Source: Candidatus Multivorans sp.
GTDB taxonomy: Bacteria; Acidobacteriota; Thermoanaerobaculia; Multivoradales; Multivoraceae
DNA: 64,000 nt
Assembly: GCA_965262355.1 (NCBI GenBank)
Contig: OZ253534.1
Span: forward strand, 3,023,670 to 3,087,669
Reading direction: 5' to 3'
Program-made: the position numbers and the translations under genes
Notes under the pieces: model-generated
Database searches by the model: none
What the model was told of the DNA's origin: nothing
What the model saw: the letters and a program-made list of their open reading frames with translations, nothing else
Part shown: one piece after another, positions 8,637 to 61,283 of the stretch
Layout: each line of letters begins with the position of its first letter
Position numbering within the stretch: position 1 is the stretch's first letter

Positions 8637-9161
8637 ATGTCGATTGCTTCGCCGTCTAAACGAGCGAGACTGATCGTTCTCGCCGTTGGTGTTGCAAGCA
8701 TGTTGGGTCTCGGCGATGGTCCGGCCTTTGCCGGGTTCAAGAATGCCGACACCGATTGGATGAGGGACGGAAAGTACGGCATTTACCTCAAATACCTGAA
8801 TTGGACTCCTAGAGAAACAACATCTGCCGAATACAACCAGTGGGTCGATGCATTCGACGTAGACAGGTTCGTCGAAGCCGTCGAACTGACCGGCGCAAGC
8901 TGGGTCATCTGGGGCCTCGGACGCGTGTGGTTCAACTCGCCCAACGCAACGCTGGACGGCTTTGTGGGTGACTTCACCTCCAACCGTGACCTACCGCTCG
9001 AGATCTCCGCCGCATTGCAGGAACGAGGCATCAAGTTCATGCTGTATGCCGCGGCCGACAAGACGGAATCAGAAAATGACCCTCTTGGAAAGCTCGCCTT
9101 GGGATGGGGCCTCAATAACAGGTACACGAGTACCTATTGTAGTGTCTCCGACATGGGTTGA
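8637..9161 (+). CDS. 5' fragment of giant secreted protein gene (signal peptide + start of GH29-like alpha-L-fucosidase-fold domain), interrupted by IS630 element
   Basis: Signal peptide RLIVLAVGVASMLGLGDGPAFA; DWMRDGKYGIYLKYL and FDVDRFVEAVELTGASWVIWG resemble GH29 N-terminal motifs; the frame is terminated by a TGA inside the IS630 left inverted repeat. Confidence 0.55.
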   Translation: MSIASPSKRARLIVLAVGVASMLGLGDGPAFAGFKNADTDWMRDGKYGIYLKYLNWTPRETTSAEYNQWVDAFDVDRFVEAVELTGASWVIWGLGRVWFNSPNATLDGFVGDFTSNRDLPLEISAALQERGIKFMLYAAADKTESENDPLGKLALGWGLNNRYTSTYCSVSDMG

Positions 9162-10273
9162 CAGTCTCGGGCAAGTTCGTCAGTATTCCGTTCATGTGGG
9201 AACCAGCGGAACGACTTCACATCGAAGAGAGCGATCGAGCGCTTCTCAAGAAATGGGTAGAGGCGCCGACGACGACGCAACGCACCGTCCGGCGTAGCCG
9301 GATCGTGCTCGCTGCGGCGGAGGGCACGGCCAATCGGGCGATTGCGGCGAAACTCGGCGTTTCGCGGCCCACGGTGCTGCTGTGGCGTCGTCGGTTCGCG
9401 GAGGACGGACCTTCGGGGCTGACCAGGGATCGTCCCCGCGGTTGCGGAAAGCCGCCGCTCTCGGAGTCGGTCGTGCGTAAAATGATCGAAGCGACGCTGC
9501 ACGAGAAGCCGCCCGGTCAGACCCACTGGAGCGTGCGTTCGATGGCTCGGGCCCAGGGCATCAGTCCGGCGGCGGTCCAGCGCATCTGGGTGGCGCACGG
9601 GCTGAAGCCCCATCTGGTCAAGACGTTCAAGCTGAGCAACGACCCCAGGTTCGTGGAAAAGCTGCGGGACGTTGTGGGCCTGTACCGGAATCCGCCCGAG
9701 AACGCGCTTGTGTTGTGCGTGGACGAGAAGAGCCAGATCCAGGCTCTGGACCGGACCCAGCCGGGCTTGCCGCTCAAGCGCGGCCGCGCGGGAACGATGA
9801 CCCACGACTACAAGCGCAACGGGACGACGACGTTGTTCGCTGCGCTGAACGTGTTGGAGGGCACGGTGATCGCGGAGTGCATGGGCCGGCAGCGCCACCA
9901 GGAGTTTCTCCGTTTCCTCAAGCGTCTCGACCGTGAGATCCCGAAGCATCTCGACCTGCACCTGATCCTGGACAACTACCAGACCCACAAACACGCCGCC
10001 GTGCGCGCATGGCTGGAGCGAAAGCCTCGCTTCCACTTCCATTTCATTCCGACTTCGTCGCCCTGGCTCAACTTGGTCGAACGCTGGCTGGGCGGTCTGA
10101 CCACGAAGGCGATCCGGCGCGGTGCATTCCAGAGCGTCAACGACCTCGTAAAGACCATCTACGACTACGTGGAGCACAGCAACGAAAACTCCCGGCCGTT
10201 CGTCTGGACGGCCACCGCCGACAGCATCATCGCAAAGGTTACACGTGGTAAAGCCATGTTGGAGACAGTACAC
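9137..10273 (+). mobile_element. IS630-family insertion sequence (1137 bp) with TA target-site duplication
   Basis: Imperfect terminal inverted repeats ttgTAGTGTCTCCgACATGG (left) / rc TAGTGTactgTCTCCaACATGG (right); TA at 9135-9136 and 10274-10275; internal DDE transposase. Confidence 0.7.
9194..10273 (+). CDS. IS630-family DDE transposase (about 360 aa; no stop codon inside the element, continues in frame into host gene)
   Basis: HTH region LHIEESDRALLKKWVEAPTTTQRTVRRSRIVLAAAEG...; DDE core LVLCVDEKSQIQAL...LHLILDNYQTHKH...; last IS codons AML-ETVHY run into the right inverted repeat. Confidence 0.8.
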
Positions 10274-13200
10274 TATGTGAACAATTGGGCGGATGTGCTC
10301 CAAGTCTGGTCCGATCGCTATGCAACAAAAGTGTCGGGCTGGTGGATCGATCATGCCTATCAACGCTATGCCGTTTCGGTGACCGCCCGGGGTGCCTCCA
10401 ATCCGGAGTTCGCGATCTACAGAGATCATCTCCTTTCCGGGAATCCGAACAGCATTGTGGCGTTCAATCACGGTTGGCGGGACCTGGATGCCCACACCCC
10501 CGAAGAGGACTACAGGTCCGGGCACGAACGTGCAATCGCGGAAAGCGTTGCATCTTCCAGATGGTGGCATGGGCTCCAGTGGCACTACCTGTCTCGTCTT
10601 GGTCCTGGCCTTTGGGGGTCGGAGGGTATTCGATATGACACACAGGTCCTGATCGACTACGTCAACGAAAACAACCGGCACGAAGGGGCGAACACTTTCA
10701 GCGTGTTTGTCTACTCGAAGCCGGGCGAGTCGGCTGAGGGTATTGTCAAATCACCGGGGAACCTCAGCAATGCCCAGATCCGGCAACTGTCGGCGCTACG
10801 GGATGCGTCGCTACAGTTCGTGGACGACACGTCGGACGACGTCACCTTCGTCGGGACGTGGGAGCGGATGGACGACGAGCTGGACTTCCGCGGCTCGACC
10901 ACCGGGTCGGATGAGGCGGACGCCCATGCCGAGTTGGCGTTTTCGGGAATCGGCGTGGAGGTGGTCGTGAGGAGAGGTCGGAACGGCGGCCTGGTCGATG
11001 TGGAACTGGATGGCGACGTCGTGTTGGATGATTTCGATACGTACTCGCGGGCGACGGCGTTCAAACAGGTCATCTACACCAACAAGAATCTTGATGCGGG
11101 GTCTCACACGGTACGACTGGTCGCGACCGGCCGAAAGAGCGCCGGCGCGACAGCCGCCGACGCAATGTTGGACAACTTCGCGGTGACCATGGCGGACACA
11201 ATGCGCCCGCGGGTGTTGTCGGTCACGAGCGACGCGTCGCACCCGACGAAGGACTCCTTTACGGTGACGATCGACTTCCTGGAGGATGTCACGGGGCTTC
11301 GGGCGGGAGAAATATCCGTCAGCAACGGCTCCGTCTCGAACTTCGCAGGCTCGGGCGCCAGCTACACGCTCGACATCGCGCCGACCGCGGGCCTGGAGGG
11401 CGAGGTGACGGTTGACGTCCCGGCCAATGCGGTGGTGGACGGAGCGAGCAACGGCAACCTGGAGGGAAGCGAGACTTTCGCCGTGGACACGCGGGTCCCC
11501 GTGATTCAGACGGCGGTGGCGAACCAGGCTGTGCTGACCCTTGTCTACGGCGAGGCGTTGGACCCGCTTTCGGTGCCGCCGGCGAGTGCCTTCACCCTGA
11601 CGGGGGGCGGGGCGCCGCGCACGATTTCGAACGTGGTGGTGAACGGGAGTCGGGTGGTGTTTTCCATTGACCCTCCGGCGTCGTACGGCGAAGCGGGCCT
11701 GCAGGTCGGCTACTCGGCGCCTTCGGGCGGTGCCCTGGTCGACGCACTGGGCAACAAGGTTCCGTCATTCACGAACCAGGCGGTCGCCAACGAATCGCCG
11801 GGCACGACACTTTCCACCGACACATGGATCACCGGTGCGACGGCGTTCTCGGTGCGGGAGGGCGACACGGCGGTGGCGACGCTCACGGCGACGGAAGCGG
11901 CCACTGCTGCTGGGGATCCGGTCTGGTGGATCCCTTCGGGTGCTGCTGGCGGGCCGGACGGCGGCAAGTTCGCTCTCAGTCGCGCCGGCGTGCTCACGTT
12001 TGCCGCGGCGAAGGACTTCGAGGCCCCGGACGACGCGAACGCCGACGGCGGCTACCAAGTCACGGTCCAGTTGAGCGTCGGCGCGTTGACCGCCGCGGCC
12101 GACCTGACGGTGACACTCACCAACCGCAACGAGGCGCCGGTGGCCGATGCACGCGCCGTTCAGCCGATTGTGGCCCAGGGCGCCACGGCGACCCTGAGTG
12201 GTTCGGGGAGCGACCCGGACGCCGACGACACCCTGACCTACGCCTGGACGCAGACGGGCACTCCCGCGGTGGCGCTGTCGGATACGGCGGCCGCCTCCCC
12301 GACCTTCACCGCGCCTTCCAACCTGACTGAGGACACTACGCTGTCGTTCACCCTCCGAGTCGCCGACTCGAGCGGTCTTTATCACGAGGACGCGGTATCG
12401 GTGACGGTGCAAGAAAACCCCCTGCTCACCGCGGCGTTCGAGAACGCGCCGGCCCGCCACGACGGCTCGACACCGTTCGCGGTGGATCTTCGATTCAGCG
12501 ACGAGGTCGCACTTTGGTACTCGGCGTTCACCTCAGGGTTGCTTACAACCACCGGCGGGACGGTGCAGCGCGCGAGCCGTCTGGTGCTGCGTAGCAACAT
12601 TGGATGGCGGATCCCAGTGACGCCGGACGGGGACGGCGACGTGGTGATCACGTTGCCGGCGAACCGCCCCTGCAGTTGGCTGACCGGGGCGTGTGCGCGG
12701 GACGGCCGGAAACTGGCGGTGGCGGCCAGCGTCACGGTGCCCGGTCCGGTGCCCAGTCCGGCGCCCGATATCACCAGCGCGGCGGCGTTCACGGTCCAGG
12801 AAGGCGAGACGGCGGTCGGGACGCTGACGGCGACGGACGCGGACACGCAGGCATCCGGTCTGAGCTGGTCGCTGAGCGGTGGAGCGGACCAGGCGAAGTT
12901 CGCCATCACGAGCGCCGGCGCGCTGAGCTTCGCGGGGGTGAAGGACTACGAGGCGCCGGACGACGCCAACACGGACGGCGCCTACCAGGTGACGGTGCAG
13001 GTGAGCGACGGTGGGCGCACGGACACGGCGGATCTGACGGTGACGCTGACGAACGTGAACGAGGCGCCGACGGCGGACGCGGGCCCGGACCAGCCGGGGG
13101 TCGAGCCGGGGGCGCAGGTGACGCTGAGCGGTACGGGGACGGACCCGGACGCCGGCGACACGCTGAGCTACGCGTGGACACAGACGGGTGGGACGAGCGT

Positions 13201-15850
13201 GACGCTGACAGGCGGCGCCACGGCCACGGCGACGTTCACGTTACCGAGCGGGGCGGCCGACGACGACGAATTCACGTTCAAGCTCAAGGTCGCCGATGCC
13301 GCCGGGCTGTCCGCCGAGGACTCGGTGAGGGTGACGGTGCGGGCCGTCGCGTCTACGGACCCCGCAGCGACCGTGGAGGTATTGAACGAGGACTTCGACG
13401 ACGGCGATGCGGACGGGTGGACGGTCTACGACGGAAGCTGGTCGGTCACGGACGGTACGTACGGGGTCAACGGCGGGGGAGAGCGCAAGGCGGTAGCGGC
13501 GGCGATCGACGTTGCGGACTTCGTGCTGGAAGCCGAGGTTCGGGTGAAGTCGAACTCGGGTGATTCGGGGGTGGTATTCCGGGTGAGCGATCCGGGGACC
13601 GGGACCGACAACTACAAGGGCTACTACGTGGGCGTCGCCACCGACTCGTCGCTGGTGTTCGGCAAGGCGAACGCGGGTCGGTGGGAGGAGTTGGACAGGG
13701 AGAATCTGGCGTTCACGTCAGGCCTCTGGTACAGGTTGAAGGTCGTGGCGTCGGGGGCTTCGATCCGAGTCTACGTATCGGACGTGCTCACGATCGAGGC
13801 GACGGACGATACCTACGACAGTGGCGCGATCGGCTTGCGGACGTGGCGCGCCGAGGCGGACTGGGACAACGTTGCCGTTGCGAAGATCCTCGAGGAGGAT
13901 AGCGTCGGATTCCGGGTCACGGCTGCGCCAGGGGAGATCGACGAGGGGGCCGCCACGACGGTGACCGTGGCGACCGTGAACGGTGCGACATTTGCCGAGG
14001 CGCAGGACATCGCCCTCGAGGTGTCGGGGTCTGCGTCGGCGGCCGACTACGAGATGGCCTCGACCGGCTTGACGCTGGCGGCCGGGACGGCAGCGGTGTC
14101 GGTGGAACTGACAGCGGTGGATGACGAGGCCGAGGAGGCTGCGGAGACGGTGACGGTGACGGCGGCACGCGGCGGCTCGGAGATCGGTTCGGCCACGGTG
14201 ACGATCCGGGCCAGCGACGAGGCGGCGGTCGTGGAACCGGCGGCGCCGGAGATCAGCAGCGCGTCGACGTTCTCGGTAGCGGAGGATACGACGGCAGTGG
14301 CCACGCTGGCGGCGACGGACGCGGACACGCAGGCGTCCGGCCTGACGTGGTCGCTGAGCGGTGGAGCGGACCAGGCGAAGTTCGCCATCACGAGCGCCGG
14401 CGCGCTGAGCTTCGCGGAGGCGAAGGACTACGAGGCGCCGGACGACGCCAACACGGACGGCGCCTACCAGGTGACGGTGCAGGTGAGCGACGGTGGGCGC
14501 ACGGACACGGCGGACCTGACCGTGACGCTGACGAACGCGAACGAGGCGCCGACGGCGGACGCGGGCCCGGACCAGCCGGGGGTCGAGCCGGGGGCGCAGG
14601 TGACGCTTGGTGGTACGGGGACGGACCCGGACGCCGGCGACACGCTGAGCTACGCGTGGACGCAGACGGGTGGGACGAGCGTGACGCTGACGGGCGGCGC
14701 CACGGCCACGGCGACGTTCGCGGCGCCGGACGATCTTCCGGCGAGCGAGGAGCTGACGTTCCGGCTGCGGGTCACGGACGCGGGCGGGCTGCACGACGAC
14801 GACACGGTGAGGGTGACGGTCCAGGCGAGCGACGAGTCGTCGTCAACGGAATCGGACGTGGAGTGGGGCGAGCGTCTGCGGGACCGCGACATCGTGCTGC
14901 CCAGCGGCTCGAAGCCCACCGGGCTGTGGTCGGACGGAACCACACTGTGGGTCCTCTCCGAGTGGAACAGCGGGCAGGTGCTGACCTATTCTCTGGCCGA
15001 CGGGACGCGCCTGACCGAGGGCGAGGTCACGCTACCGGACGGCGTCACGCCAGGGAGCAGTAGCTTCCGATTGACCGGAAACGGGTTCCCGGCAGGGCTG
15101 TGGTCGGACGGCACCACGCTGTGGGTGGCGGATTATTTTGGCGGCGTACGCGCGTACCGGCTGGCTGACGGCGCCCGCCTGGAGACCGATGACCTGCCCG
15201 ACGACGTGCTGGCGGCGGCGGGCAACAGTGCTCCGACGGGGCTGTGGTCGGACGGCGAGTTCTTGTGGGTGACCGACCACTGGCAATACCAAGTGTTTGC
15301 CTACCGGCTCTCCGACAAGGCGCGGGTGGCGGACGAGGAGTTCGAGCTGTGGGACGGCCTCACGCCGTACGGAGGTTTCGGGCTGTGGTCGGATGGCGAG
15401 ACGGCGCTGGTCGGCCCATCATTCTACGCTCGCGTGCTCGCTCATTCGCTGGCGACCGGCGAGCAACAGGCGGAACGGACCGTGGACCTCTCGGCGGACG
15501 GTGTCCGCAGGTCGAACGGGCTGTGGTCGGACGGCGAGACGCTGTGGGTGGCGAACGAACGTCACAACCGCATCTACGCCTACGCCGTACCGGGACTTCG
15601 CCGAGCCAGCGCGCGGAATGCCCTCCGAACCCAATCGGAGGACTTAGGCGTGCGGGTGCAGACAGAGACGCGTGGGAAGGAGGTGTCTGTGGGCGAATCG
15701 ACGGCGGACACGCCCGCTGCCATTCCCGACCCGGTGCTGAGCGCGTTGATCGCCCCGGCGCTGGGCAAGGAGTCGGGCGAGCCGATCAGCTTGCGCGAGA
15801 TTGCGGCCTTGACCATGGAGAAGCGGGCGCCGCAGTTCACCGGGCGCTGA
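10274..15850 (+). CDS. 3' portion (about 1,858 codons) of the giant secreted protein. Domains: rest of the GH29-like fold, a lectin-like module, a cadherin-like plus PKD-like module, a DUF1080/ConA-like domain, a Calx-beta domain, a second cadherin-like plus PKD-like module, a 5-repeat beta-propeller-like region (GLWSDGxTLWV), and a crotonase-like tail
   Basis: Cadherin-like WSLSGGADQAKFAITSAGALSF...DYEAPDDANTDGAYQVTVQVSDGG...LTVTLTNVNEAP; PKD-like DTLSYAWTQTGG; DUF1080-like DGWTVYDGSWSVTDGTY...IRVYV; five GLWSDG.TLWV repeats; ends EIAALTMEKRAPQFTGR. Confidence 0.7.
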   Translation, partial: YVNNWADVLQVWSDRYATKVSGWWIDHAYQRYAVSVTARGASNPEFAIYRDHLLSGNPNSIVAFNHGWRDLDAHTPEEDYRSGHERAIAESVASSRWWHGLQWHYLSRLGPGLWGSEGIRYDTQVLIDYVNENNRHEGANTFSVFVYSKPGESAEGIVKSPGNLSNAQIRQLSALRDASLQFVDDTSDDVTFVGTWERMDDELDFRGSTTGSDEADAHAELAFSGIGVEVVVRRGRNGGLVDVELDGDVVLDDFDTYSRATAFKQVIYTNKNLDAGSHTVRLVATGRKSAGATAADAMLDNFAVTMADTMRPRVLSVTSDASHPTKDSFTVTIDFLEDVTGLRAGEISVSNGSVSNFAGSGASYTLDIAPTAGLEGEVTVDVPANAVVDGASNGNLEGSETFAVDTRVPVIQTAVANQAVLTLVYGEALDPLSVPPASAFTLTGGGAPRTISNVVVNGSRVVFSIDPPASYGEAGLQVGYSAPSGGALVDALGNKVPSFTNQAVANESPGTTLSTDTWITGATAFSVREGDTAVATLTATEAATAAGDPVWWIPSGAAGGPDGGKFALSRAGVLTFAAAKDFEAPDDANADGGYQVTVQLSVGALTAAADLTVTLTNRNEAPVADARAVQPIVAQGATATLSGSGSDPDADDTLTYAWTQTGTPAVALSDTAAASPTFTAPSNLTEDTTLSFTLRVADSSGLYHEDAVSVTVQENPLLTAAFENAPARHDGSTPFAVDLRFSDEVALWYSAFTSGLLTTTGGTVQRASRLVLRSNIGWRIPVTPDGDGDVVITLPANRPCSWLTGACARDGRKLAVAASVTVPGPVPSPAPDITSAAAFTVQEGETAVGTLTATDADTQASGLSWSLSGGADQAKFAITSAGALSFAGVKDYEAPDDANTDGAYQVTVQVSDGGRTDTADLTVTLTNVNEAPTADAGPDQPGVEPGAQVTLSGTGTDPDAGDTLSYAWTQTGGTSVTLTGGATATATFTLPSGAADDDEFTFKLKVADAAGLSAEDSVRVTVRAVASTDPAATVEVLNEDFDDGDADGWTVYDGSWSVTDGTYGVNGGGERKAVAAAIDVADFVLEAEVRVKSNSGDSGVVFRVSDPGTGTDNYKGYYVGVATDSSLVFGKANAGRWEELDRENLAFTSGLWYRLKVVASGASIRVYVSDVLTIEATDDTYDSGAIGLRTWRAEADWDNVAVAKILEEDSVGFRVTAAPGEIDEGAATTVTVATVNGATFAEAQDIALEVSGSASAADYEMASTGLTLAAGTAAVSVELTAVDDEAEEAAETVTVTAARGGSEIGSATVTIRASDEAAVVEPAAPEISSASTFSVAEDTTAVATLAATDADTQASGLTWSLSGGADQAKFAITSAGALSFAEAKDYEAPDDANTDGAYQVTVQVSDGGRTDTADLTVTLTNANEAPTADAGPDQPGVEPGAQVTLGGTGTDPDAGDTLSYAWTQTGGTSVTLTGGATATATFAAPDDLPASEELTFRLRVTDAGGLHDDDTVRVTVQASDESSSTESDVEWGERLRDRDIVLPSGSKPTGLWSDGTTLWVLSEWNSGQVLTYSLADGTRLTEGEVTLPDGVTPGSSSFRLTGNGFPAGLWSDGTTLWVADYFGGVRAYRLADGARLETDDLPDDVLAAAGNSAPTGLWSDGEFLWVTDHWQYQVFAYRLSDKARVADEEFELWDGLTPYGGFGLWSDGETALVGPSFYARVLAHSLATGEQQAERTVDLSADGVRRSNGLWSDGETLWVANERHNRIYAYAVPGLRRASARNALRTQSEDLGVRVQTETRGKEVSVGESTADTPAAIPDPVLSALIAPALGKESGEPISLREIAALTMEKRAPQFTGR
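12838..13230 (+). repeat. Intragenic direct repeat copy 1 (cadherin-like + PKD-like module), about 97% identical at the DNA level to 14320-14718
   Basis: Near-identical about 390-bp DNA stretches from gacgcggacacgcagg... to ...gccacggcgacgttc. Confidence 0.8.
14320..14718 (+). repeat. Intragenic direct repeat copy 2
   Basis: See copy 1. Confidence 0.8.
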
Positions 15851-15980: not shown

Positions 15981-16673
15981 TTAGAACGAGAAGCCGATCC
16001 CGGCGAGGAAGTCGACCGGCTGTTCCGGCAGGGCGTCGCTGTCCAGGGCGTCGATGTAGCTGACGAACGCCGACCAGGCACCACCGGAAAGGCCGAAGGT
16101 GACGTTGCCGTCGTACATGCCGCCGGCGAGGCCGTCGTAGGCGGCGGCGAAGTCGTCGCCGGCGTAGCCGGCCGAGATCGAGACGCTCCAGGCCAGCGCG
16201 CCGCTGGCGTCGCCGCCGAACGAGACGCCGAAGTTGGCGTAGAAGTCCTTGACCTCGTCGATGTCGTAGTAGAGCGCAACGCTGGGCGAGGCGGTGATGT
16301 CCCAGCCGATCGTGGCGTAGACCTCGCGGGTGCCGGCGAACGGCGTGTTCGGGAACAGGTACTCGATGAAGCCGACCTCGGCCGAGACCGCGTCCGTGCC
16401 GAAGCCGTAGGAGGCCGTGAGATCGATCTCGTTGAACTCACCGCTCATGTCGTTCGCGTCGTCGATGTCGAGGTTGCCCCAGACGTTGATGGCGAAACCG
16501 CTGTCGTTCGAGGCGGTGACGGAGGGCTGGAACACCGCGCCGTCGGTGAAGGTGATGCCGCGCCAGACGTAGGCCGACGCGAAGTCGAGGGCGTATTCAG
16601 CGTCGGCCGACGCCGGGGCGGCGGCGAGGCTGAGCAGTGCGAGTAGAACGAAGATTGCGGATTTCCGGATCAT
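15981..16673 (-). CDS. Outer-membrane beta-barrel protein (signal peptide, C-terminal Phe)
   Basis: MIRKSAIFVLLALLSLAAAPASA; alternating amphipathic strands; ends ...GIGFSF. Confidence 0.6.
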   Translation of the reverse strand: MIRKSAIFVLLALLSLAAAPASADAEYALDFASAYVWRGITFTDGAVFQPSVTASNDSGFAINVWGNLDIDDANDMSGEFNEIDLTASYGFGTDAVSAEVGFIEYLFPNTPFAGTREVYATIGWDITASPSVALYYDIDEVKDFYANFGVSFGGDASGALAWSVSISAGYAGDDFAAAYDGLAGGMYDGNVTFGLSGGAWSAFVSYIDALDSDALPEQPVDFLAGIGFSF

Positions 16674-16914: not shown

Positions 16915-18453
16915 TTACAGGGCGTAGCTGTTCGGATCAATGCCGTACTTCTTGATCTTGTAGCCGGTGATCCGCGGCGTGGTGTGCAGCTTGCGCGACG
17001 CGGCCGCGATGTTCCCGCGGGCGCTCTTCAGGGCGTCGCGCAGCAGGTCGCGCTCGTAGTTCTCGACCAGGTAACGGAAGCTGCCCGCCGGCTCGGTGCC
17101 GGAACTCTCCGCGGTTTGAAGGGTCGGCGGCAGGTGGTGCGGGTGGATCGCGTCGTTCCTTGCCACCAGGACCGCGCGTTCGATGCAGCTCTCGAGCTCC
17201 CGCACGTTGCCGGGCCAGTGATAGCTCATCAGCATGTCGATCACGGCGCTCGAGAGCCGGCGCACGTTGGCGCCGTTGGCGCGCGTGTAGCGCTCCAGGA
17301 AGAAGTCGGCCAATTGGACGATGTCCGACTTGCGTTTGCGCAGCGGCGGCACGTGGATGGGGAACACGTTCAGGCGGTAGAACAGGTCCTCCCGGAATCC
17401 GCCGTGCGCGGTCATGTCGGACAGGTTCTTGTTGGTGGCGGCGATGATCCGCACGTCCGCCTTCAGGGTGCGGCTGCCGCCGACTCGTTCGAACTCCCGC
17501 TCCTGCAGCACCCGCAGCATCTTGATCTGGATCAGCAGGGGTACGTCGCCAACCTCGTCGAGGAAGATGGTGCCGGTGTGGGCCAACTCGAAGCGGCCCT
17601 TGCGTTGGTTGATCGCACCGGTGAAGGCGCCGCGCTCGTGGCCGAACAGCTCGCTCTCGATCACGCTCTCGGGCAGCGCCGCGCAGTGGACCTTGACGAA
17701 GGGCCGGGTGGCGCGGGCGCTGCTGTAGTGGATCGCCTGCGCCACGAGCTCCTTGCCGGTGCCCGTCTCGCCGGTGATCAGGACGCTCGTGTTGCTGCCG
17801 GAGACGGTGGCGATCTGGTCGTACACCTCCTGCATCTCGTGCGAGTTGCCGACGATGTTGGCGGGGCGGAAGCGGTCGCGGAGTTGGGCGCGCAGGCGCT
17901 CGTTCTCCTCCTCGAGCTGCTCCTTCTCCTCCTCGGCGGTGCGGCGCAGCTTGACCGCCTGGGCGATCAGGGCGCCGGCGATCAGAAGCACGCGGACGTC
18001 CCCGTTCAGATCGTGGTCCGGGTCGTAGACCCGATCGACGCTGAGCGCGCCGTAGGTCTCGTTGCCCGTTCGAATGGGTACGCACAGGAAGGAGACCTCC
18101 GCGCTCTTGCCGCGACGGGTGCGGTCGAGGAAGGTCTCGGACTCACTCGTCTTCGGGATCACTTCCGGCTCGCCGGTCTCGATCACCTTGCCGGTGATGC
18201 CCTCGCCCAGGCGATAGCGGACCTGGGAAATCTGCTGGCCGGTCAAGCCGTGGGCGACCTCGATGTGGATGTCGCCGGTCTTGCGGTTCAGCAGCGTGAT
18301 CGTGCCGTGCTTCAGATTCAGGTGCTCGGCCAGCGTTGAGAGCGCAGGCTGGGTCACGTCACGCAGATCGAGACTGCCGCTGAGCGTCTGGCTCAGCCGG
18401 TAGAGGAGTTCCAGTTCCCTGGGTTCGCGCGAGTTCACAACTGTCCAGCCCAT
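16915..18453 (-). CDS. Sigma-54-dependent transcriptional activator (GAF - AAA+ - Fis-type HTH; NifA-like architecture)
   Basis: Walker A ITGETGTGKE, GAFTGA sigma-54 contact motif, ESELFGHE, C-terminal HTH; N-terminal GAF. Confidence 0.85.
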   Translation of the reverse strand: MGWTVVNSREPRELELLYRLSQTLSGSLDLRDVTQPALSTLAEHLNLKHGTITLLNRKTGDIHIEVAHGLTGQQISQVRYRLGEGITGKVIETGEPEVIPKTSESETFLDRTRRGKSAEVSFLCVPIRTGNETYGALSVDRVYDPDHDLNGDVRVLLIAGALIAQAVKLRRTAEEEKEQLEEENERLRAQLRDRFRPANIVGNSHEMQEVYDQIATVSGSNTSVLITGETGTGKELVAQAIHYSSARATRPFVKVHCAALPESVIESELFGHERGAFTGAINQRKGRFELAHTGTIFLDEVGDVPLLIQIKMLRVLQEREFERVGGSRTLKADVRIIAATNKNLSDMTAHGGFREDLFYRLNVFPIHVPPLRKRKSDIVQLADFFLERYTRANGANVRRLSSAVIDMLMSYHWPGNVRELESCIERAVLVARNDAIHPHHLPPTLQTAESSGTEPAGSFRYLVENYERDLLRDALKSARGNIAAASRKLHTTPRITGYKIKKYGIDPNSYAL

Positions 18454-20071: not shown

Positions 20072-20394
20072 TCAGATCTGCACGTCCTTGTACTTGTCGG
20101 TCTTGCGGGCGATCAGCCGCTGCCGCAGCACCGACAGCAGGAGCAGCGCAAGACCGCCGTAGACGCCGGCGACGCCCAGTTTGATGTATAGGGGCGCTTC
20201 CCGGTCGACGACGAGCGCGTAGATGGCGAAGCCGACCAGGGCGAGCACGCCGCCGATCAGGAGCAGCCAGCCGATAGCGCGTGCTAGCGCGGCAGGACTC
20301 CCGGAAGGCGGCGCTTCGCGGGGGATGCCGGCGGGGACGCCGGCGCACCCAGTTTCTGCCGCGCAATCTCCTGGGTCAGCCGTAGAGTCCGCCA
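20072..20394 (-). CDS. Small two-helix membrane protein
   Basis: MADSTADPG... then two hydrophobic helices (IGWLLLIGGVLALVGFAIYALVV / LGVAGVYGGLALLLLSVL). Confidence 0.4.
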
Positions 20395-51906: not shown

Positions 51907-54498
51907 CTAGCGATCCCCGACCCAGAACGGACTCGACCAGGCCCGGCCGCCGTCGAGTTGGGTTACCCGAACATAGTAGTAGTCGCCGTCCGCAACGTCC
52001 TCGAAGTCCACGAACTGAACTTCCCGGTCGAGGGCGCCGCTTGGATCGACCGCCTGCAGGTTGAGGCGGTCCAGGTGAGGTCCGACCGGCAGCTCATGAT
52101 GGAGGCGGCCGGCCTCAAGCTCGCCGAGCCGGACTTCGAAGTCGGCGGCGGCGATCCGGGCGGCGGGCCTGACCGCCGGTGCGAAGCCGAACTCCGTGGT
52201 CGCCTCGAGGCGGAAGCGGAGCCGGGTTTGAGGACCGGCGCCATCGAGTTCGACCAGGAACGAGTCGGCGCGGCCGCGAGTCAGGATGCGGAACCTGGCG
52301 CCGTCCCGCGACCCTTGATCGAGCCGCGAGACTTGATCGCGAAGCGGGTTGTCGAGGCCGGTCGGTGCGATGCCGATAAGGCGCGCTCCCTCGACTTCGA
52401 GGGTACCTTCCCACTGTCGGTAGCCGCGGGGGTTGTCGAGCTGCTCGCCGAAGACCTCGGAAGAGGATTCGAAGGACACCTGCAGCCAAGTGTGCGGCTT
52501 GAGCGGTTCGGCAAGGTAGTGCTTGCTGAGGATGATGTCGCCGTTGCGCACCACGTCGATTCGATCGATCGGCGAAGTGCCGTTGACCTTCACCCGGATC
52601 TCGCGCCGCCCGGCGCTCTCCTGCCGGCGCCCCATGCCGGCGCCGTTCAGAGTCGCCTCGAGCAGAATGCGTTGCCCGGAAGTGGCGTAGCACGAGAGGT
52701 TACGCAGCGCCGAGAACACGGCGTCTCTGCTGAGTTCGGGGGCCAGCACGGCGGCCAGACCCCCGGGCTGGGAGACGCTCGAGAGGGGTCCCGGCGCCAG
52801 TCCCGGCTTGGCATGGTGGTCGTCCGAGGCGGCCACGAAGCCGAGTTCGAAGCCGCTCTTGAGGTAGCGGTTGGCAAACCACTCGAAGCTGCCGTGAACC
52901 GAGTAGAGCTCGACCAGCTTTTCCAGCTCGGGATCGCTGCGGGTCCAGTCGCCGGCGCGATGGGCGTGCGGAATGACCAGGACCTCGTCGGGATCGTAGA
53001 TCGCATGCAGTTGGCGATAGAGATCGGGCAGCCGGGTCGCTTCCTGAACGGAGACTCGACGGCTCCAGGGATCGAGAAAGAAGACGTTGTGGTGCCCGCC
53101 ACGGTTGCTGAACGCTGTCCATTCGTAGCCCAGGATGCCGATGAAGCGACCCTCTTCGCTGAAGTCGCGGGTCAGCTCCCCGAGGTGAAGCCACTCGCTG
53201 TCGTCCATCCAGATGTCGTGCTCCGAGAGCGTCGCGAAGTCGAGGCGGGCGTCTCGGCTGGCGTACTCGAAGAACGCCCGCGCCGAGCCGGTTCCCTCCG
53301 CCAGTCCGGTGTGGCCGTGGGTGTCGCCCCAGAGAATGCGCTCCGCCGGTTCATGCTCGACCCGAATCGGGTTGCTGGTCGCGCGCAACCGGCCATCGAC
53401 CGAGCGCACCTCGAGGCGGTGGACTCCGGGCGCTTCGATCGCCAATTGGTCGACCACCGTCAGGGCATCGTGGCCGGCCTCGACCCTCGCCATGGCGTCC
53501 CCGTTCAGGAACACCTCGTAGGCGGGAATCGGCCCGCTGGCTCGATTGATGGCCCGGTCTTCGCTTCGCACCGTGATCTCGAAGGCCTCGCCGGCGCCGA
53601 CGACGGATGGCGCCAGGATCCGAACGGCGTGGACTGCCGCCTCGCCGACGACCTCGATTCCCGGCAACTCGGGAGTCAGGTACGTCCCGCTGCCGTCGAT
53701 GTCCACGTAGACCGGCAGCAGCAGCTCGTCACTGCTGAATGCCGGCACCGCGAGACGGCTCGATTCGCCGCCGTAGGTGAACGTGACCGTTTCCCCCGGT
53801 TTGAGCGCGGCCCCCTCAAGCCGGAAGCCGGGCAGCGGACGTTTGCCTGGGACGTGCGAGTGGACACCGTTCCATTCCACCTGGACGGGCTCGAACAGAG
53901 CCGAGGGGTTGGAACTGCGCACCGAGACGAAGTTCTCGGCGGCCGGATCCTGGTTCTGGGGTCGGGTTTCGTTACCGGTCCCCGACTTGCCGACCAGGAA
54001 TCCTCCGCCGAGCGCGAGGCCGCGGGCGCCGGCGGTGTACGTCTGCTCGACGATGACCCGGGTGCCGGAGACCAGGGGGCTGGCCGTGGTCATGCGCAAC
54101 GCGCCCATTGCCTGCGGATCCGACTCCTTCAACTCGAGTTCCCGCACGTACTGATCGAACCGCTCCACTTGTGTCTGAAGGTACAGATCGATAGCTGGCG
54201 GCAGGCGAACTTCACCGCCGTCCGCTTCGGCGAAGCGAACCAGGGCCACCGTGAGGGGTAGATCCGCCGGCAAGACGCCTCCGTCGAGGGCGAAGCTGTT
54301 GGCCCAGTCCCACAAGGTGTCGGTGCGGCGGAAGATGTTGTGTGCCGACGTGGGCTCGCGCTCGATGTCCGCGATCAGCTTCTCGACCCGGTCGCGAAGG
54401 TCTTCGGCAGTCTGGACGGACTCGGGCGCCGGAGAGCAGCCAATCCATAGCAGTGCCAGCGCGACCAGCACGGCCGCGCTTTGACGCCGGGACGGCAT
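51907..54498 (-). CDS. Large DUF3604-like (PHP-like metal hydrolase) lipoprotein, paralog A (863 aa)
   Basis: Lipobox WIGCS; ILWGDTHGHTGLAEG, LSEHD, GGHHNVFF, VIPHAHRAGDW, ASDDHH; C-terminal YYYVRVTQLDGGRAWSSPFWVG. Confidence 0.6.
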   Translation of the reverse strand: MPSRRQSAAVLVALALLWIGCSPAPESVQTAEDLRDRVEKLIADIEREPTSAHNIFRRTDTLWDWANSFALDGGVLPADLPLTVALVRFAEADGGEVRLPPAIDLYLQTQVERFDQYVRELELKESDPQAMGALRMTTASPLVSGTRVIVEQTYTAGARGLALGGGFLVGKSGTGNETRPQNQDPAAENFVSVRSSNPSALFEPVQVEWNGVHSHVPGKRPLPGFRLEGAALKPGETVTFTYGGESSRLAVPAFSSDELLLPVYVDIDGSGTYLTPELPGIEVVGEAAVHAVRILAPSVVGAGEAFEITVRSEDRAINRASGPIPAYEVFLNGDAMARVEAGHDALTVVDQLAIEAPGVHRLEVRSVDGRLRATSNPIRVEHEPAERILWGDTHGHTGLAEGTGSARAFFEYASRDARLDFATLSEHDIWMDDSEWLHLGELTRDFSEEGRFIGILGYEWTAFSNRGGHHNVFFLDPWSRRVSVQEATRLPDLYRQLHAIYDPDEVLVIPHAHRAGDWTRSDPELEKLVELYSVHGSFEWFANRYLKSGFELGFVAASDDHHAKPGLAPGPLSSVSQPGGLAAVLAPELSRDAVFSALRNLSCYATSGQRILLEATLNGAGMGRRQESAGRREIRVKVNGTSPIDRIDVVRNGDIILSKHYLAEPLKPHTWLQVSFESSSEVFGEQLDNPRGYRQWEGTLEVEGARLIGIAPTGLDNPLRDQVSRLDQGSRDGARFRILTRGRADSFLVELDGAGPQTRLRFRLEATTEFGFAPAVRPAARIAAADFEVRLGELEAGRLHHELPVGPHLDRLNLQAVDPSGALDREVQFVDFEDVADGDYYYVRVTQLDGGRAWSSPFWVGDR

Positions 54499-55346
54499 CA
54501 GCTATTGATCACCTGGTCGATCACGTGCCGGATGGCGGCCGGATCCCAAGGGTCGTCGCTCGTGTGCTGCTTGGCGCCCACGGTGCTCATCATGCGGTAG
54601 GCGAAGATGTGTGTCCCCTCGACTCCCAGCGTCTGGCCGGTGATGTGAGCCGCGTGGTCCGATGCCAGGAAGACGACCAGGGGTGAAGCGTGTTGGGGGC
54701 CGTAGCGAGCGCCGAAGCTCTCGGTGACGCCCGGATTGTCCGCGGTCATGCGGGTGTAGGCGGTGGGCGAGATCGCGTTGACAGTGATTTCGTAGCGCTG
54801 CAGCTCCATGGCGGCGGTGCGCGTCAGGGCGTAGATGCCGGCCTTCGCCGCGGCGTAGTTGCTCTGCCCGAAGTTCCCCTGCATTCCGGCAATGGATGTC
54901 GTATTGATGATCCGGCCGCCTCGGCCCTGCTCGCGCATCACGCGCCCGGCCGCCTGCAGGCAACTGAAGGTGCCGCTGAGGTGCACCGCCAGAACCGCCT
55001 GCCACTCCGCCTCGCTCATCTTGAGAGCCGTTCGATCGCGCAGGATGCCGGCGTTGTTGACCAGGACGTCGACGCCGCCGAAGGCATCGACCGCCTGCTG
55101 GACGAGTTGGCCGGCGGCATCGAAGGCGCCGACGGCGAGCTTGCTGGCGACGGCATCCCCGCCATCGGCGCGGATCCGGGCGACGACCTCGTCGGCAACG
55201 TCACTCTCGCCCGAACCGTCGCGCGCGCAGCCCGGGTCGTTGACCAGGACGCGCGCTCCTTCCCTGGCGAGGAGAAGGGCGTGGGATCTGCCCAGGCCGT
55301 TGCCTGCGCCGGTGACGATGGCTACTTTTCCGGCCAGCAGTCCCAT
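54498..55346 (-). CDS. SDR-family dehydrogenase (hydroxyacyl-CoA dehydrogenase-like)
   Basis: TGAGNGLG, YAAAK; stop shares one nucleotide with paralog A start (TGATG). Confidence 0.85.
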   Translation of the reverse strand: MGLLAGKVAIVTGAGNGLGRSHALLLAREGARVLVNDPGCARDGSGESDVADEVVARIRADGGDAVASKLAVGAFDAAGQLVQQAVDAFGGVDVLVNNAGILRDRTALKMSEAEWQAVLAVHLSGTFSCLQAAGRVMREQGRGGRIINTTSIAGMQGNFGQSNYAAAKAGIYALTRTAAMELQRYEITVNAISPTAYTRMTADNPGVTESFGARYGPQHASPLVVFLASDHAAHITGQTLGVEGTHIFAYRMMSTVGAKQHTSDDPWDPAAIRHVIDQVINS

Positions 55347-55475
55347 GGGCCTCCTCTCTTGAGTCTCGATCTTCGGCGGTCCACTCTAGCGTCTCCGTAA
55401 CTCCTCTCGGCCGCCGTGCTAACTTGACCTCGACCGTCCAGCCGCCGTCCCAGCCTGAAGGAGCGTGGTACGCGA

Positions 55476-58082
55476 ATGCGGAGTGTTCCTCTCAAAAGAG
55501 TTCTCCTGGCTGTGTGCGCCGTCGTTGTCGCCTGCGCGCCGCCGCCGGGTGACGACTATCTGGACGCGGATCTGAGATTGCGGGTGGAAGCGCTCAAGGT
55601 GGAGGTCGAAGCGGCGCCGGCGACCCGGGAGAACGCGGTGCAGCGCGCCCGAGTGTTCTGGGAGTGGTTGAACGCCTACGCGCTCACCGGTCGAACCCTG
55701 CCCATGGACAGCACCACGGCGGTGATGCGGGTCATGAGCCGGAACGAGCTCAGCCGGGGCATCTCGCCAGCAATCCTCAGGACTCTCGACGACAAGATCC
55801 ACGAACTGGCGATTCGCGACGCGCGCCCGGACGCCATCGGCGACGTTACGGCCAAGGCCGACGAGCTATTGGTCGCCGGCAGTTGGGCGCAACTCGAACA
55901 GACCTATACCGTCGGCTCGATGGGGATGGCCACCGGAGGCTCGTTCCTTCTCGGCGCCCAGATCATGGCCGACCAGGCGTCGATGCAGCACGAGGATCCT
56001 GCGGCGGACAACTACGTTTCGGTCCGTTCGTCGAACGCCGATGCACGTTGGGAGAAGCCCCGCATTCCTCTGTCGGGGAAGCACGGCGGCTTCAAGGACG
56101 AAGCGGAGATGGTGGTCTTCCGGCTCGCGGAAGGCACGCTCGAGCACGGCGACACGGTGACCTTCACCTACGGTGACAGGTCGCAGGGCTCCTCGGGCCT
56201 GAGGTTGCAGACGCTGACGACCGAGAAGCTGGTGCTGCCGATCTACGTCGACCTTACGGGCGCCGGGGTCTTCTTTACGCCTCGCTGGCCGCATCACGAG
56301 ATCGTCGGCCGGAACGAAGTCGAGTCGTTGGCGGTCTTCGCTCCTTCCGTGGTCGCGGCGAGCGAGGAGATCGACTTGGTGGTGCGCAGCGAGGATCGGC
56401 ACTTCAACCGCTCGCGCGGTGTCACCGTTCAGGAGTACGAAGTGCTGCTAGACGGTGAGGCCGTCGCCACGGTACCCGCGGGTTCGGAGTCGGCGGCCGG
56501 CGTCGAAGGCTTGTCCGTGAGCAGCCCGAGGGTCGCCCGCTTCGTCGTCCGTTCGGCGGACGGCCGGCTCGAAGCCCGGAGCAATCCGGTCTGGGTCGAG
56601 AGCGCCCCCGAACAGCGAATCTATTGGGGCGAGCTCCACGGCCACGCCGGCTTCGCGGAAGGTCAGGGCGGCGGCGAGCAGTTCTATCGCTACGCCCGCG
56701 ACGACGCGCGGCTCGACTTCGTTGCCCTCACCGATCACGACTCGTCGATGGACGACTTCGAGTGGCGGTACCTGCAGGAGCTCAGCCGGGACTTCAACCG
56801 GGAAGGAGAGTTCCTCGCCATTCTCGGCTACGAGTGGAGCGCCACCCGGGATCTCGGAGGGCACCACAACGTCTTCTTCCGCTCCCGCGATCGTTCGCGG
56901 GTGCCGAATCAGGAGGCGCCGACCCTGGCCCAGATGTACGAGCGTCTGCGGAGCGAGAACCAGCCGTCCGAGGTGCTGGTCATTCCGCATGCCCACCAGG
57001 CTGGCGACTGGAACCAGAGTCCCGGGGATCTCCAGTCGCTGGTGGAGATCATGTCTCAGCACGGGACCTTCGAGTGGTTCGGCAACCGGTACCTGCAGAA
57101 CGGTTTCGAGGTCGGCTTCATCGCGGCCTCGGACGATCATCGCGCCAAGCCGGGCTACAACCCCGGGCTCTTCTTCTCTCCCCACGTTCAGGGCCCCGGC
57201 CTGGCGGCGGCCGTGGCGGCCGAGAAGACCACGGACGCGGTCTTCGACGCTCTACGCTCACGCCGCGCATACGCCACTTCGGGCCAGAGAATCCTGCTCT
57301 CGGCCACCCTGAACGGCGAGCCCATGGGAACGCGGCAGCCGTACACAGAGCGGCGCGAGTTCTCCTGCCGGGTGTCGGGTACTTCTCCCATCGACCGCAT
57401 CGACCTGATCAAGAACGGGCGCGTCCTGCGCAGCCGCAGCTACCTGTCGGCGCCGCTCGAATCGAGTGCCTGGGTGCAGATCGGGTTCGAGTCGTCTTCG
57501 GAGGTCTTCGCTCCCGACCGCGACAATCCGCGCGTCTACAGGGTCTGGTCGGGCGTACTCGAGGTGGCAGGGGCCCGGCTTCTCGGCGTTGAGTCTCCGG
57601 GTCTGAAGAACCCCTATCTCGAGTGGGCCGAGATCGACCCGGAGGAGCCGCAGCGGGTGCGCTTCTACACCGAGACCCGCGGCCGGATGAACACGCTCTT
57701 GCTTCGTCTGAGCGGCGCCAGCAGCTCAACGCGGGTCACGCTGCATCTGGATGCGGCGCGGGAGAACGGCTTTGCGCCGCCGCTCGTTCGGCAGCCGATG
57801 GACATTCCCGCCGCCGAAGTGGCGTTCCAACTCGACGATCTCGAGGACAGCCGCATCGAGCACGTGCTGCCGGTCGGCCGCCATCTCGATCGTCTCAGCC
57901 TGCAGGTGATCGACGCGGATGCCGCCCTCGACCGGGAGTTCGACTTCGTCGATCTCGGGTCGACTGCACCGGGCGACTACTACTACTTCCGAGTGACACA
58001 GCTCGACGGCGGTCAGGCATGGTCGAGCCCCTTCTGGGTCGGCCGCCGCGATGCCGGCGACGGCGCTGCCGCGGGCGGTTAG
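55476..58082 (+). CDS. Large DUF3604-like lipoprotein, paralog B (868 aa)
   Basis: Lipobox VVACA; about 55-60% identical to A through the His-rich core. Confidence 0.6.
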   Translation: MRSVPLKRVLLAVCAVVVACAPPPGDDYLDADLRLRVEALKVEVEAAPATRENAVQRARVFWEWLNAYALTGRTLPMDSTTAVMRVMSRNELSRGISPAILRTLDDKIHELAIRDARPDAIGDVTAKADELLVAGSWAQLEQTYTVGSMGMATGGSFLLGAQIMADQASMQHEDPAADNYVSVRSSNADARWEKPRIPLSGKHGGFKDEAEMVVFRLAEGTLEHGDTVTFTYGDRSQGSSGLRLQTLTTEKLVLPIYVDLTGAGVFFTPRWPHHEIVGRNEVESLAVFAPSVVAASEEIDLVVRSEDRHFNRSRGVTVQEYEVLLDGEAVATVPAGSESAAGVEGLSVSSPRVARFVVRSADGRLEARSNPVWVESAPEQRIYWGELHGHAGFAEGQGGGEQFYRYARDDARLDFVALTDHDSSMDDFEWRYLQELSRDFNREGEFLAILGYEWSATRDLGGHHNVFFRSRDRSRVPNQEAPTLAQMYERLRSENQPSEVLVIPHAHQAGDWNQSPGDLQSLVEIMSQHGTFEWFGNRYLQNGFEVGFIAASDDHRAKPGYNPGLFFSPHVQGPGLAAAVAAEKTTDAVFDALRSRRAYATSGQRILLSATLNGEPMGTRQPYTERREFSCRVSGTSPIDRIDLIKNGRVLRSRSYLSAPLESSAWVQIGFESSSEVFAPDRDNPRVYRVWSGVLEVAGARLLGVESPGLKNPYLEWAEIDPEEPQRVRFYTETRGRMNTLLLRLSGASSSTRVTLHLDAARENGFAPPLVRQPMDIPAAEVAFQLDDLEDSRIEHVLPVGRHLDRLSLQVIDADAALDREFDFVDLGSTAPGDYYYFRVTQLDGGQAWSSPFWVGRRDAGDGAAAGG

Positions 58083-58116
58083 GCGAGGATCGCGAGGCGT
58101 CGCGGGCGGAGAACGG

Positions 58117-59697
58117 ATGTCGCTGAGGGAGTCCTACTGGCCGGCCGATACCAGCCAGCCGGTTCTCGAGTGGACGGTGGGCAGGCTCTTGCACGAGGCC
58201 GCAGCGGCGGCCCCCGAAGGGATTTCCCTGGTCGAGGGCGTTCCCGACCCCGCGTCGCGCCGTTGCTGGACCTTCGCGCAGTTGCTTGCCGACGCCGAGC
58301 ACGTCGCGCGGCGTCTGCTGCGGTACTTCGAGCCCGGGGAACGGCTCGCGGTCTGGGCTCCGAATCTGCCCGAATGGGTGTTGGTCGAACTCGGCGCCGC
58401 CCTCGCCGGGCTCACCCTCGTGACCGTCAACCCCGCCTACCGCGGCAGCGAACTCGAGTACGTCCTCGGCCAGTCGCGCGCCGCCGGTCTGTTCCTGGTG
58501 CGCGACCATCGCGGCAACTCGATGGCCGCTTCGCTGGACGAGGTGCGCCCGCGGTTGGAACACCTGAGAAACGTCTTCTTCTTCGAGGAGTGGGACGACT
58601 TCATGGGCGGCTCGCCGGGCGACCGCGAGCTACCTCAGGTGAGCCCCGAGGCGCCGGTCCAGATTCAGTACACCTCGGGCACCACCGGCGTTCCCAAGGG
58701 CGCGTTGCTGCACCACCGCGGCATGGTCAACAACGCCCGATTCGTCGCGCAGCGCGGCCGGTTGGGCAAGGTGTGGGTGAATGCGGTACCGCTGTTCCAC
58801 TCGAGCGGCGGCGGCCTGGCGATCTTCGGCCCGCTGTTTACGAAGGCGACGGTGGTTCTGGTCGAACAGTTCGACCCGGGCCTGATCCTGGAACTGATCG
58901 AGAGCGAGCGGGTGACCTTCCTTCCCGGCGTGCCGACCATGCTGATCAAAATCCTGGAGCATCCCGACTTCGAGCGCCGCGACCTCTCTTCGCTGACCAG
59001 CGTGTGCTCGGGCGGCACCTCCGTGCCACCCGAGTTGGTGCGCCGGATCGAAGACTCGCTGGGGGTCAGCTTCTCGATCTCCTACGGCCAGACGGAGGCG
59101 TCACCAGGGGTCACGCAGAACTATCCGGACGACAGCATCGAGGACAAGGCGGTGACGGCAGGGCCGCCTCTACCCCAGACCGAGGTCAAGATGGTCGACT
59201 CCGAGACCGGCGAGGTTCTCCCCGTCGGCGAAGCCGGTGAAATCTGCACGCGCGGTTACCTCGTCATGCACGGTTACTTCGAGATGCCGGAGGCGACGGC
59301 GGCCGCGATCGACGACCAGGGGTGGTTGCACACCGGCGACATCGGATCGATGGACGAGCGCGGCTACTGTAGAATTCGCGGGCGGCTGAAGGAGATGATC
59401 ATCCGCGGCGGCGAGAACATCTACCCCAAGGAGATCGAGGATGTGCTCCTCGAACGCGCCGACATCGCCGAGGCGGCGGTGATCGGCGTTCCCGATCCGA
59501 AGTGGGGCGAGCAGGTGGCGGCGGTGATTCGACTGGCCGGGGACGAGCGCCCCAGTGAGGAAGATCTCTTCGACTACGTGAGGGAACGCTTGGCGCCCTA
59601 CAAGACGCCGAAGTTGTGGCGCTTCATCGACGAGTTTCCGCTCAACGCCTCGGGCAAGATCCTCAAGACGGATCTGGCCGCGACCCTGTCCCTGTAG
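58117..59697 (+). CDS. AMP-dependent acyl-CoA synthetase/ligase
   Basis: YTSGTTGVPKGA AMP-binding motif, C-terminal GKILK. Confidence 0.85.
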   Translation: MSLRESYWPADTSQPVLEWTVGRLLHEAAAAAPEGISLVEGVPDPASRRCWTFAQLLADAEHVARRLLRYFEPGERLAVWAPNLPEWVLVELGAALAGLTLVTVNPAYRGSELEYVLGQSRAAGLFLVRDHRGNSMAASLDEVRPRLEHLRNVFFFEEWDDFMGGSPGDRELPQVSPEAPVQIQYTSGTTGVPKGALLHHRGMVNNARFVAQRGRLGKVWVNAVPLFHSSGGGLAIFGPLFTKATVVLVEQFDPGLILELIESERVTFLPGVPTMLIKILEHPDFERRDLSSLTSVCSGGTSVPPELVRRIEDSLGVSFSISYGQTEASPGVTQNYPDDSIEDKAVTAGPPLPQTEVKMVDSETGEVLPVGEAGEICTRGYLVMHGYFEMPEATAAAIDDQGWLHTGDIGSMDERGYCRIRGRLKEMIIRGGENIYPKEIEDVLLERADIAEAAVIGVPDPKWGEQVAAVIRLAGDERPSEEDLFDYVRERLAPYKTPKLWRFIDEFPLNASGKILKTDLAATLSL

Positions 59698-61276: not shown

Positions 61277-61283
61277 GGCGGCG

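Follow-up and report, generated by a model that had tools for sequence, protein, structure and literature searches.

Within a 64-kb stretch of the genome of Candidatus Multivorans sp., a member of the Acidobacteriota, an open reading frame (ORF) of exceptional length combines an insertion-sequence transposase with most of a large, putatively secreted protein. This stretch is referred to as the window, and all coordinates are window positions. The structure is best explained, with a probability of about 0.9, by the recent insertion of an IS630-family element of the IS870 kind at an off-target site, CTAT, which split a single gene of 2,024 codons; the giant ORF would then be an accident of the insertion. 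The absence of an internal stop codon from the transposase gene is a normal trait of the sub-clade to which the element belongs, and the CTAT target is the unusual part.

Reading frames and reconstruction of the host gene

Two ORFs on the plus strand cover the locus. They extend from 8637 to 9161 (174 amino acids, ATG start) and from 9158 to 15850 (2,230 amino acids, TTG start), and both are found in the ORF list as reported in the first-pass annotation of this DNA. The components of the locus are as follows.

8637–9136, plus strand: 5' part of the host gene, comprising codons 1–166 and the first two bases of Tyr167 and encoding an N-terminus that resembles a signal peptide, then one half (the first) of a fucosidase-like (GH29-like) domain
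9134–9137, plus strand: left direct repeat CTAT (4 bp), which includes the conventional TA at 9135–9136
9138–10272, plus strand: IS630-family element proper, 1,135 bp, TGTAG...GTACA (9137–10273 and 1,137 bp by the TA convention)
9138–9162, plus strand: left terminal inverted repeat, containing TGA at 9159–9161
9194–10273, plus strand: transposase coding region, 360 codons (MWEPAERL...MLETVH), with helix-turn-helix (HTH) and DDE_3 domains and no stop codon of its own
10248–10272, minus strand: right terminal inverted repeat, which the transposase frame passes without a stop
10273–10276, plus strand: right direct repeat CTAT, in which TAT (10274–10276) stands in place of TAG and is also host codon Tyr167
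10277–15850, plus strand: 3' part of the host gene, 1,857 codons and a stop, in frame with the transposase and recognized by Pfam matches and by identity to contig L082

The left junction reads ...GAGTACC TA / TTGTAGTGTCTCCGACATGGGTTGACAG... and the right junction ...CATGTTGGAGACAGTACAC / TA TGTGAACAATTGG..., with slashes marking the joins. When 1,139 bp are taken out (9137–10275, or either equivalent shift), a single ORF of 2,024 amino acids is obtained, which reads ...NNRYTSTY/VNNWADVLQVW... across the join and corresponds to a reconstructed empty-site junction of ...GAGTACCTATGTGAAC...; excision of 1,137 or 1,141 bp instead leads to early stops. The proposal that a deletion of 1,139 bp rejoins one frame is therefore upheld, although the restored length is 2,024 and not about 2,030 amino acids. 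As previously claimed, the 5' part of the host gene ends within the left inverted repeat, at TGA 9159–9161, and the C-terminus of the fragment is ...TSTY-CSVSDMG-stop. Translation of the transposase frame likewise confirmed that it has no stop and continues in the host frame to 15850: it is open to the final base of the element, followed by TAT GTG AAC..., and gives ...MLETVH-Y-VNNWADV... past the junction. Counted from ATG 9194, the fusion ORF has 2,218 codons, with 1,857 host codons open after Tyr167.

Identity and boundaries of the inserted element

The transposase matches the NCBIfam IS630 model NF033545 with a score of 273 bits (cutoff 100), and its Pfam matches are PF13358 (DDE_3) and HTH_23/29/32/28. 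Translation likely starts at ATG 9194 rather than at the TTG of the longer ORF; this ATG is aligned to residue 1 of the annotated transposase of ISRjo2 from Rhodococcus jostii RHA1. The ends of the element are imperfect inverted repeats, with about 21 of the first 26 positions identical by eye in the printed alignment.

The element occurs once in the window. Scanning of species-representative genomes identified two copies in Candidatus Multivorans sp. OZ251997.1 (L001 and L002) that are 99% identical to it, and a third in OZ245033.1 (L003) that is 97% identical; the value for L001, which lies in another genome, is 99.4%. In all three the similarity breaks off no more than a few bases from 9137 and 10273, and what lies outside is unrelated sequence. 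Because these copies share their ends at unrelated loci, the boundaries of the element are independently confirmed and it is an insertion sequence present in multiple copies. Most related copies are 1,132–1,137 bp long, compared with 1,135–1,137 bp for the element in the window, and the junctions are CTAG on both sides in 54 of 61 resolved related copies. Viral contigs yielded one distant relative only. Membership of the IS630 family is supported by the transposase model, the inverted repeats, the TA-containing duplication, and the presence of multiple copies. The family and ends given in the first-pass annotation are in agreement with the 273-bit match and with the ends of L001–L003.

A scan of positions 8300–10600 for promoters and terminators found nothing above the shuffled expectation. 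The left repeat includes a TTGACA/TTTACA motif (9158–9163), some 30 nt ahead of the transposase ATG, that is conserved in several related copies. It may be the −35 box of a transposase promoter or part of the binding site of the transposase.

A stop codon borrowed from the target

Relatives of the element were collected at 156 loci in genome and metagenome scans, covering 57–99% amino-acid identity. Copies L001–L003 are bounded as cTA/.../TAg, and their transposase ends with ...ETVH followed by TAG, a stop codon that consists of the duplicated TA and the G of the CTAG target. The ORF reaches the last base of the element (...ACAC/TA) at 72 of the 156 loci; the base after the TA is G in 71 of these, giving TAG, and A in the remaining one (L103), giving TAA. 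Read-through was found in none of these 72 related copies, and the window copy is the sole case identified. Copies from Bryobacterales, as well as ISRjo2, terminate on a TGA or TAA of their own, located at the right repeat or shortly before it. Since these other relatives stop internally, the borrowing of a stop codon is a trait of the sub-clade.

In 54 of 55 copies a C precedes the left TA, and the bases further out are random. As this C on the left flank is not explicable by selection for a stop codon, the preference for CTAG is intrinsic to the transposase. For the window copy, the target was CTAT at Tyr167, placing TAT (Tyr) where TAG is expected. The transposase frame joins that of the host because the TA provides positions 1 and 2 of the host codon and the element lies in the orientation of the host gene, and it then runs through the gene because a CTAT target gives no stop.

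Examination of the best 120 transposase protein clusters indicated that almost all of them are exactly 360 amino acids long, and no other transposase fusion was found among them. Where sequences of clusters longer than 360 amino acids were read, the extra length was N-terminal only, except for P0208 (363 amino acids). This cluster was considered as a case of C-terminal extension and rejected; it represents a decayed copy (L166) that is without the TA or the left repeat and is uninformative about the duplication.

Length of the target duplication

A duplication of TA was described in the first-pass annotation. TA does occur at 9135–9136 and 10274–10275, but the flanking repeat is 4 bp long, CTAT at 9134–9137 and at 10273–10276, and not TA alone. 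At canonical sites, the element seems to begin with G and end with C. A duplication of TA (GTGTAG...CTACAC) and one of CTAG (TGTAG...CTACA) are indistinguishable at CTAG sites, so that only copies outside CTAG are informative. Besides the window copy, the only one in a non-CTAG site is L103, which has CTAA on both sides. Under the TA model, both of these copies require an extra mutation in the first base of the element for it to match the base after the right TA.

Both junctions could be compared in 55 copies. Two have a base other than G on the right and the same base on the left, and none has a right base other than G with a different base on the left; the remaining 53 have G on the right, accompanied by G on the left in 50 and by another base in three. 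A one-sided Fisher test on this table gives p = 0.0067, where identity of the two bases is not yet demanded. For four divergent copies (L030, L093, L094, and L114) the left end was misplaced by the automatic procedure, and they were set aside and not scored as exceptions. Two points count against the longer duplication. It is based on two informative copies only, and three copies (L108, L134, and L125) have one mismatch each between the two sides, for which a point mutation is needed under either model. In the metagenome copies L108 and L134, the left junction is CTAC or CTAT and the right junction CTAG; the left-end base might have mutated, or these might be off-target insertions in which a stop was later restored by mutation.

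On balance, the two cases argue that the sub-clade probably duplicates 4 bp (CTAN) rather than TA alone. The stronger proposal, that the target is cut with a 4-bp stagger and CTAN duplicated, unlike the TA of the IS630/Tc1/mariner group, is given even odds. If it is true, the target would contribute the third base of the final His codon as well as the entire stop codon, and the integrity of the transposase would be tied to target choice, with landing in CTAY producing a C-terminally extended and probably crippled protein. The window copy and L103 would then be two natural cases that reveal this arrangement. The hint of a 4-bp duplication is a small new point, and one that is invisible at canonical sites.

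The interrupted gene and its homologues

The intact host gene has 2,024 codons, with the insertion in codon 167 (Tyr, TAT). Its N-terminus, MSIASPSKRARLIVLAVGVASMLGLGDGPAFA, resembles a Sec signal peptide by inspection. The closest homologues of the first 347 amino acids of the restored protein are P0003 (88% identity), P0001 (67%), and P0002 (65%), and many further homologues at 29–35% identity carry PF01120 (alpha-L-fucosidase). A Pfam search with the first 260 amino acids of the restored protein gave no family at E ≤ 0.01. Compared with solved structures, a profile from the domain alignment matched alpha-L-fucosidase 9pnj with E = 1.9e-24 and endofucoidanases at about 1e-8. Ten homologues align without gaps across the junction, with conserved columns on both sides, including SGWWxD just downstream of it; D192 in WWxD is among the invariant columns.

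Downstream of the insertion lies the second half of the fucosidase-like domain, after which Pfam identifies Big_12, a SWM repeat, Sde0182_C, and three K319L-like PKD domains, together with cadherin/Big_9 repeats and a 3-keto-disaccharide-hydrolase-like domain. Towards the C-terminus there are several GLWSDG(T/E)TLWV repeats, five by eye, at host residues ∼1716–1930 (window 15234–15304 and 15513–15583), and these match no Pfam family. The earlier description of a giant adhesin/glycosidase can be kept in part: the glycosidase assignment holds only through the match of the alpha-L-fucosidase profile, and the adhesin assignment reflects the Ig-like, PKD, and cadherin-like repeats. Taken together, these features point to a putative secreted protein that is fucosidase-like/adhesin-like.

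The host gene also contains internal direct repeats, at 11948–12247, 12878–13177, and 14360–14659, and at 12759–13058 versus 14241–14540. In one pair, whose members are separated by 1,482 bp, identity is 91% across 300 nt, pointing to a cadherin/PKD module that was duplicated recently.

Empty-site orthologues and age of the insertion

Comparison with orthologous DNA provides a test of whether one gene or two occupied this position. Contig L082 (ENA ERZ25068966) aligns at positions 2490–3049 to window 8574–9133 with 92.1% nucleotide identity, and at 3053–6143 to window 10276–13338 with 91.0% identity. In L082 only 3 bases separate the blocks, and window position 9133 there lies next to 10276; L082 is therefore an uninterrupted, empty-site orthologue. 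Contigs L081 and L080, from the P0001 locus, are likewise uninterrupted at the insertion site of the window. An origin as two separate genes is ruled out by the collinearity of L082 and by the ten gap-free homologues, and the alignment to orthologues for which the first-pass annotation had asked gives the answer of one gene.

Other disruptions were observed in these contigs. In L081 (9154–11642) and in L080, the gene is broken by an IS66-family element (DruA and DDE_Tnp_IS66) at the equivalent of window ∼10897. Immediately upstream is an IS256-type transposase, and the neighbourhood is that of a conjugative element, with type IV secretion/conjugation genes (VirB3, VirB4, TrbC, CagX, ArdC, and RepA_C). 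The gene in L082 was called as two genes, of 204 and 1,528 amino acids, due to a frame break at 3230–3238, about 180 bp downstream of the insertion site; this may be a sequencing error (6x coverage) rather than a real pseudogene.

Mismatches to L082 at the first, second, and third codon positions are 5.4, 6.0, and 11.5% in the 5' fragment and 6.5, 6.1, and 11.1% in the 3' fragment. Both host fragments display the same purifying pattern, with no sign of decay. The insertion is considered recent because the transposase ORF has suffered no disruption, identity of the element to L001 stands at 99.4%, 1,857 host codons are open, and the host fragments are undecayed. Along with the exact ends and the restored frame, these observations agree with the claim that the insertion was recent and precise.

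Some observations weigh against the preferred explanation. Both L082 and L081 read ACT TTT GTC, with Phe and without a TA, and the window before insertion would have read ACC TAT GTG. Tyr167 is unique among the 11 aligned proteins, the ten homologues having Phe, and an empty-site allele of exactly the sequence of the window was not seen. As the homologues have Phe, the Tyr codon from which the TA came is found only in the lineage of the window.

Proposed mechanism and consequences

The element entered host codon Tyr167 (TAT) in the same orientation as the host gene, dividing a fucosidase-like domain of catalytic type. The CTAT target supplied TAT (Tyr) instead of TAG, joining the transposase to the host frame. 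The signal peptide and half of the domain would be left on a 174-amino-acid stub that ends at the TGA of the left repeat. Transcription from the host promoter would enter the element, and the host frame ends 32 nt before the transposase ATG.

The host gene is thus predicted to be inactivated. Any fusion protein of 2,218 amino acids would presumably be an accidental by-product, and a cytoplasmic one because its host part is without the signal peptide. The C-terminal extension likely impairs the transposase of this copy. For annotation, the ORF of 2,230 amino acids should not be treated as one gene, and is better described as a transposase (9194–10273) accidentally joined to the 3' part of a disrupted gene. 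The locus offers a clean natural example of a stop-borrowing element that landed outside CTAG. It opens no long-standing question, and is an ordinary insertion with a known quirk.

Alternative explanations

Different explanations can be proposed for the structure of this locus. Long-read metagenome assemblies underlie the related genomes, in which the element is present in several near-identical copies, conditions under which a repeat could be misplaced in a metagenome-assembled genome, or in which an insertion could be confined to a minority sub-population. However, misjoins make no target duplications, and here the 4-bp direct repeat is clean, the ends match those of three independent copies with single-base precision, and removal of the element restores both the frame and the gap-free alignment of homologues; a polymorphism, for its part, would leave the nature of the structure unchanged. 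An origin of this type is considered very unlikely. Slightly more improbable still is an initial insertion into a canonical CTAG, ending in TAG, followed by a G-to-T mutation that gave read-through. TAG adjoins 71 of the 72 related copies, and point changes are known at such positions (L108, L134, and L125). Nevertheless, a CTAG target implies that the host gene had an in-frame TAG before the insertion, two independent G-to-T changes would be needed since the left repeat is also CTAT, and L103 has the matched pattern with A.

The fusion might instead be a functional chimera maintained by selection, in which a domesticated transposase has been combined with a repeat protein. The fully open 2,218 codons and the transposase domains, which look intact, are in keeping with this suggestion. 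Against it, neither the inverted repeats nor the direct repeat has been damaged, free copies elsewhere match the element at 99.4% identity, and a Tyr codon as the target suffices to produce an in-frame join. Moreover, the join breaks a conserved fucosidase-like domain in mid-fold and strips the signal peptide from the repeat part, and the fusion is absent from the best 120 transposase clusters. Domestication is expected to leave the element ends lost and the fusion conserved; the ends persist here, and L082 and L081 are without the fusion. A selected chimera is therefore regarded as extremely improbable, and an off-target insertion that accidentally joined two frames remains the preferred reading.

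Surroundings and other repeats in the window

The genes that neighbour the locus are ordinary chromosomal genes.

6491–7156, minus strand: ECF sigma factor
7186–8133, plus strand: enoyl-CoA hydratase
15981–16673, minus strand: Gcw_chp protein
16915–18453, minus strand: sigma-54 activator

The G + C content is 58–65% over the element and the fucosidase-like part of the host gene, and 67–72% nearby.

Several repeats occur elsewhere in the window. A GC-rich repeat of 77 nt is present at 2832–2908 and 20287–20363 (81% identical) with inverted termini, GCGCGGCAG...CTGCCGCG, and might be a small intergenic palindrome. Positions 4471–4519 and 7205–7253, 2.7 kb apart, form a pair of inverted repeats of 49 nt with 86% complementarity; each arm holds a hairpin (GGTGGCGCG..CGCGCCACC), and the pair brackets PDZ and ECF sigma factor genes. 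The region 51917–63314 contains several long direct and inverted repeats with 71–90% identity (52801–53337 versus 62696–63232, 51917–52151 versus 57808–58042, and 57058–57154 versus 62697–62793), suggesting a cluster of paralogous genes.

Comparison with known systems

The general properties of the element are those of well-characterized members of the family. IS630 of Shigella sonnei and ISY100 of Synechocystis insert at TA and generate a 2-bp TA duplication, with IS630 preferring TA within CTAG; cleavage by the ISY100 transposase falls precisely at the 3' ends and, at the 5' ends, 2 nt into the element (PMC2170065). The element in the window resembles them in its DDE transposase, N-terminal HTH motifs, terminal inverted repeats, and insertion at TA. 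It differs in that the flanking repeat is 4 bp in the two copies for which the length can be distinguished, and that the transposase ORF ends on bases derived from the target.

The nearest named relative found is ISRjo2 from plasmid pRHL2 of R. jostii RHA1, with 57% amino-acid identity over the full length. The two share the start position of the transposase and similar end sequences, and ISRjo2 has a CTAG flank. Unlike the element in the window, ISRjo2 carries its own stop, an internal TAA immediately ahead of the right repeat.

A closer parallel in behaviour is provided by IS870 of Agrobacterium vitis (Fournier, Paulus and Otten 1993, J Bacteriol 175:3151, as cited in PMC13630536). In PMC13630536, IS870 and ISMt1 are described as making a stop codon from a CTAG target. 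As described there, IS870 has a large ORF without a stop of its own, for which TAG is created at 5'-CTAG-3', and 71 of 72 relatives of the window element do the same; the likeness lies in this stop-from-target behaviour. The window copy departs from IS870 in lying in CTAT, where no stop was made and the ORF was fused to a host gene. A transposase C-terminus encoded by flanking DNA is also known from IS1239 of Streptococcus pyogenes, where the cause is a 1-bp deletion and the result is described as a C-terminal polymorphism (PMC13630536); in the window, it is a non-canonical target that has added 1,858 host-gene codons.

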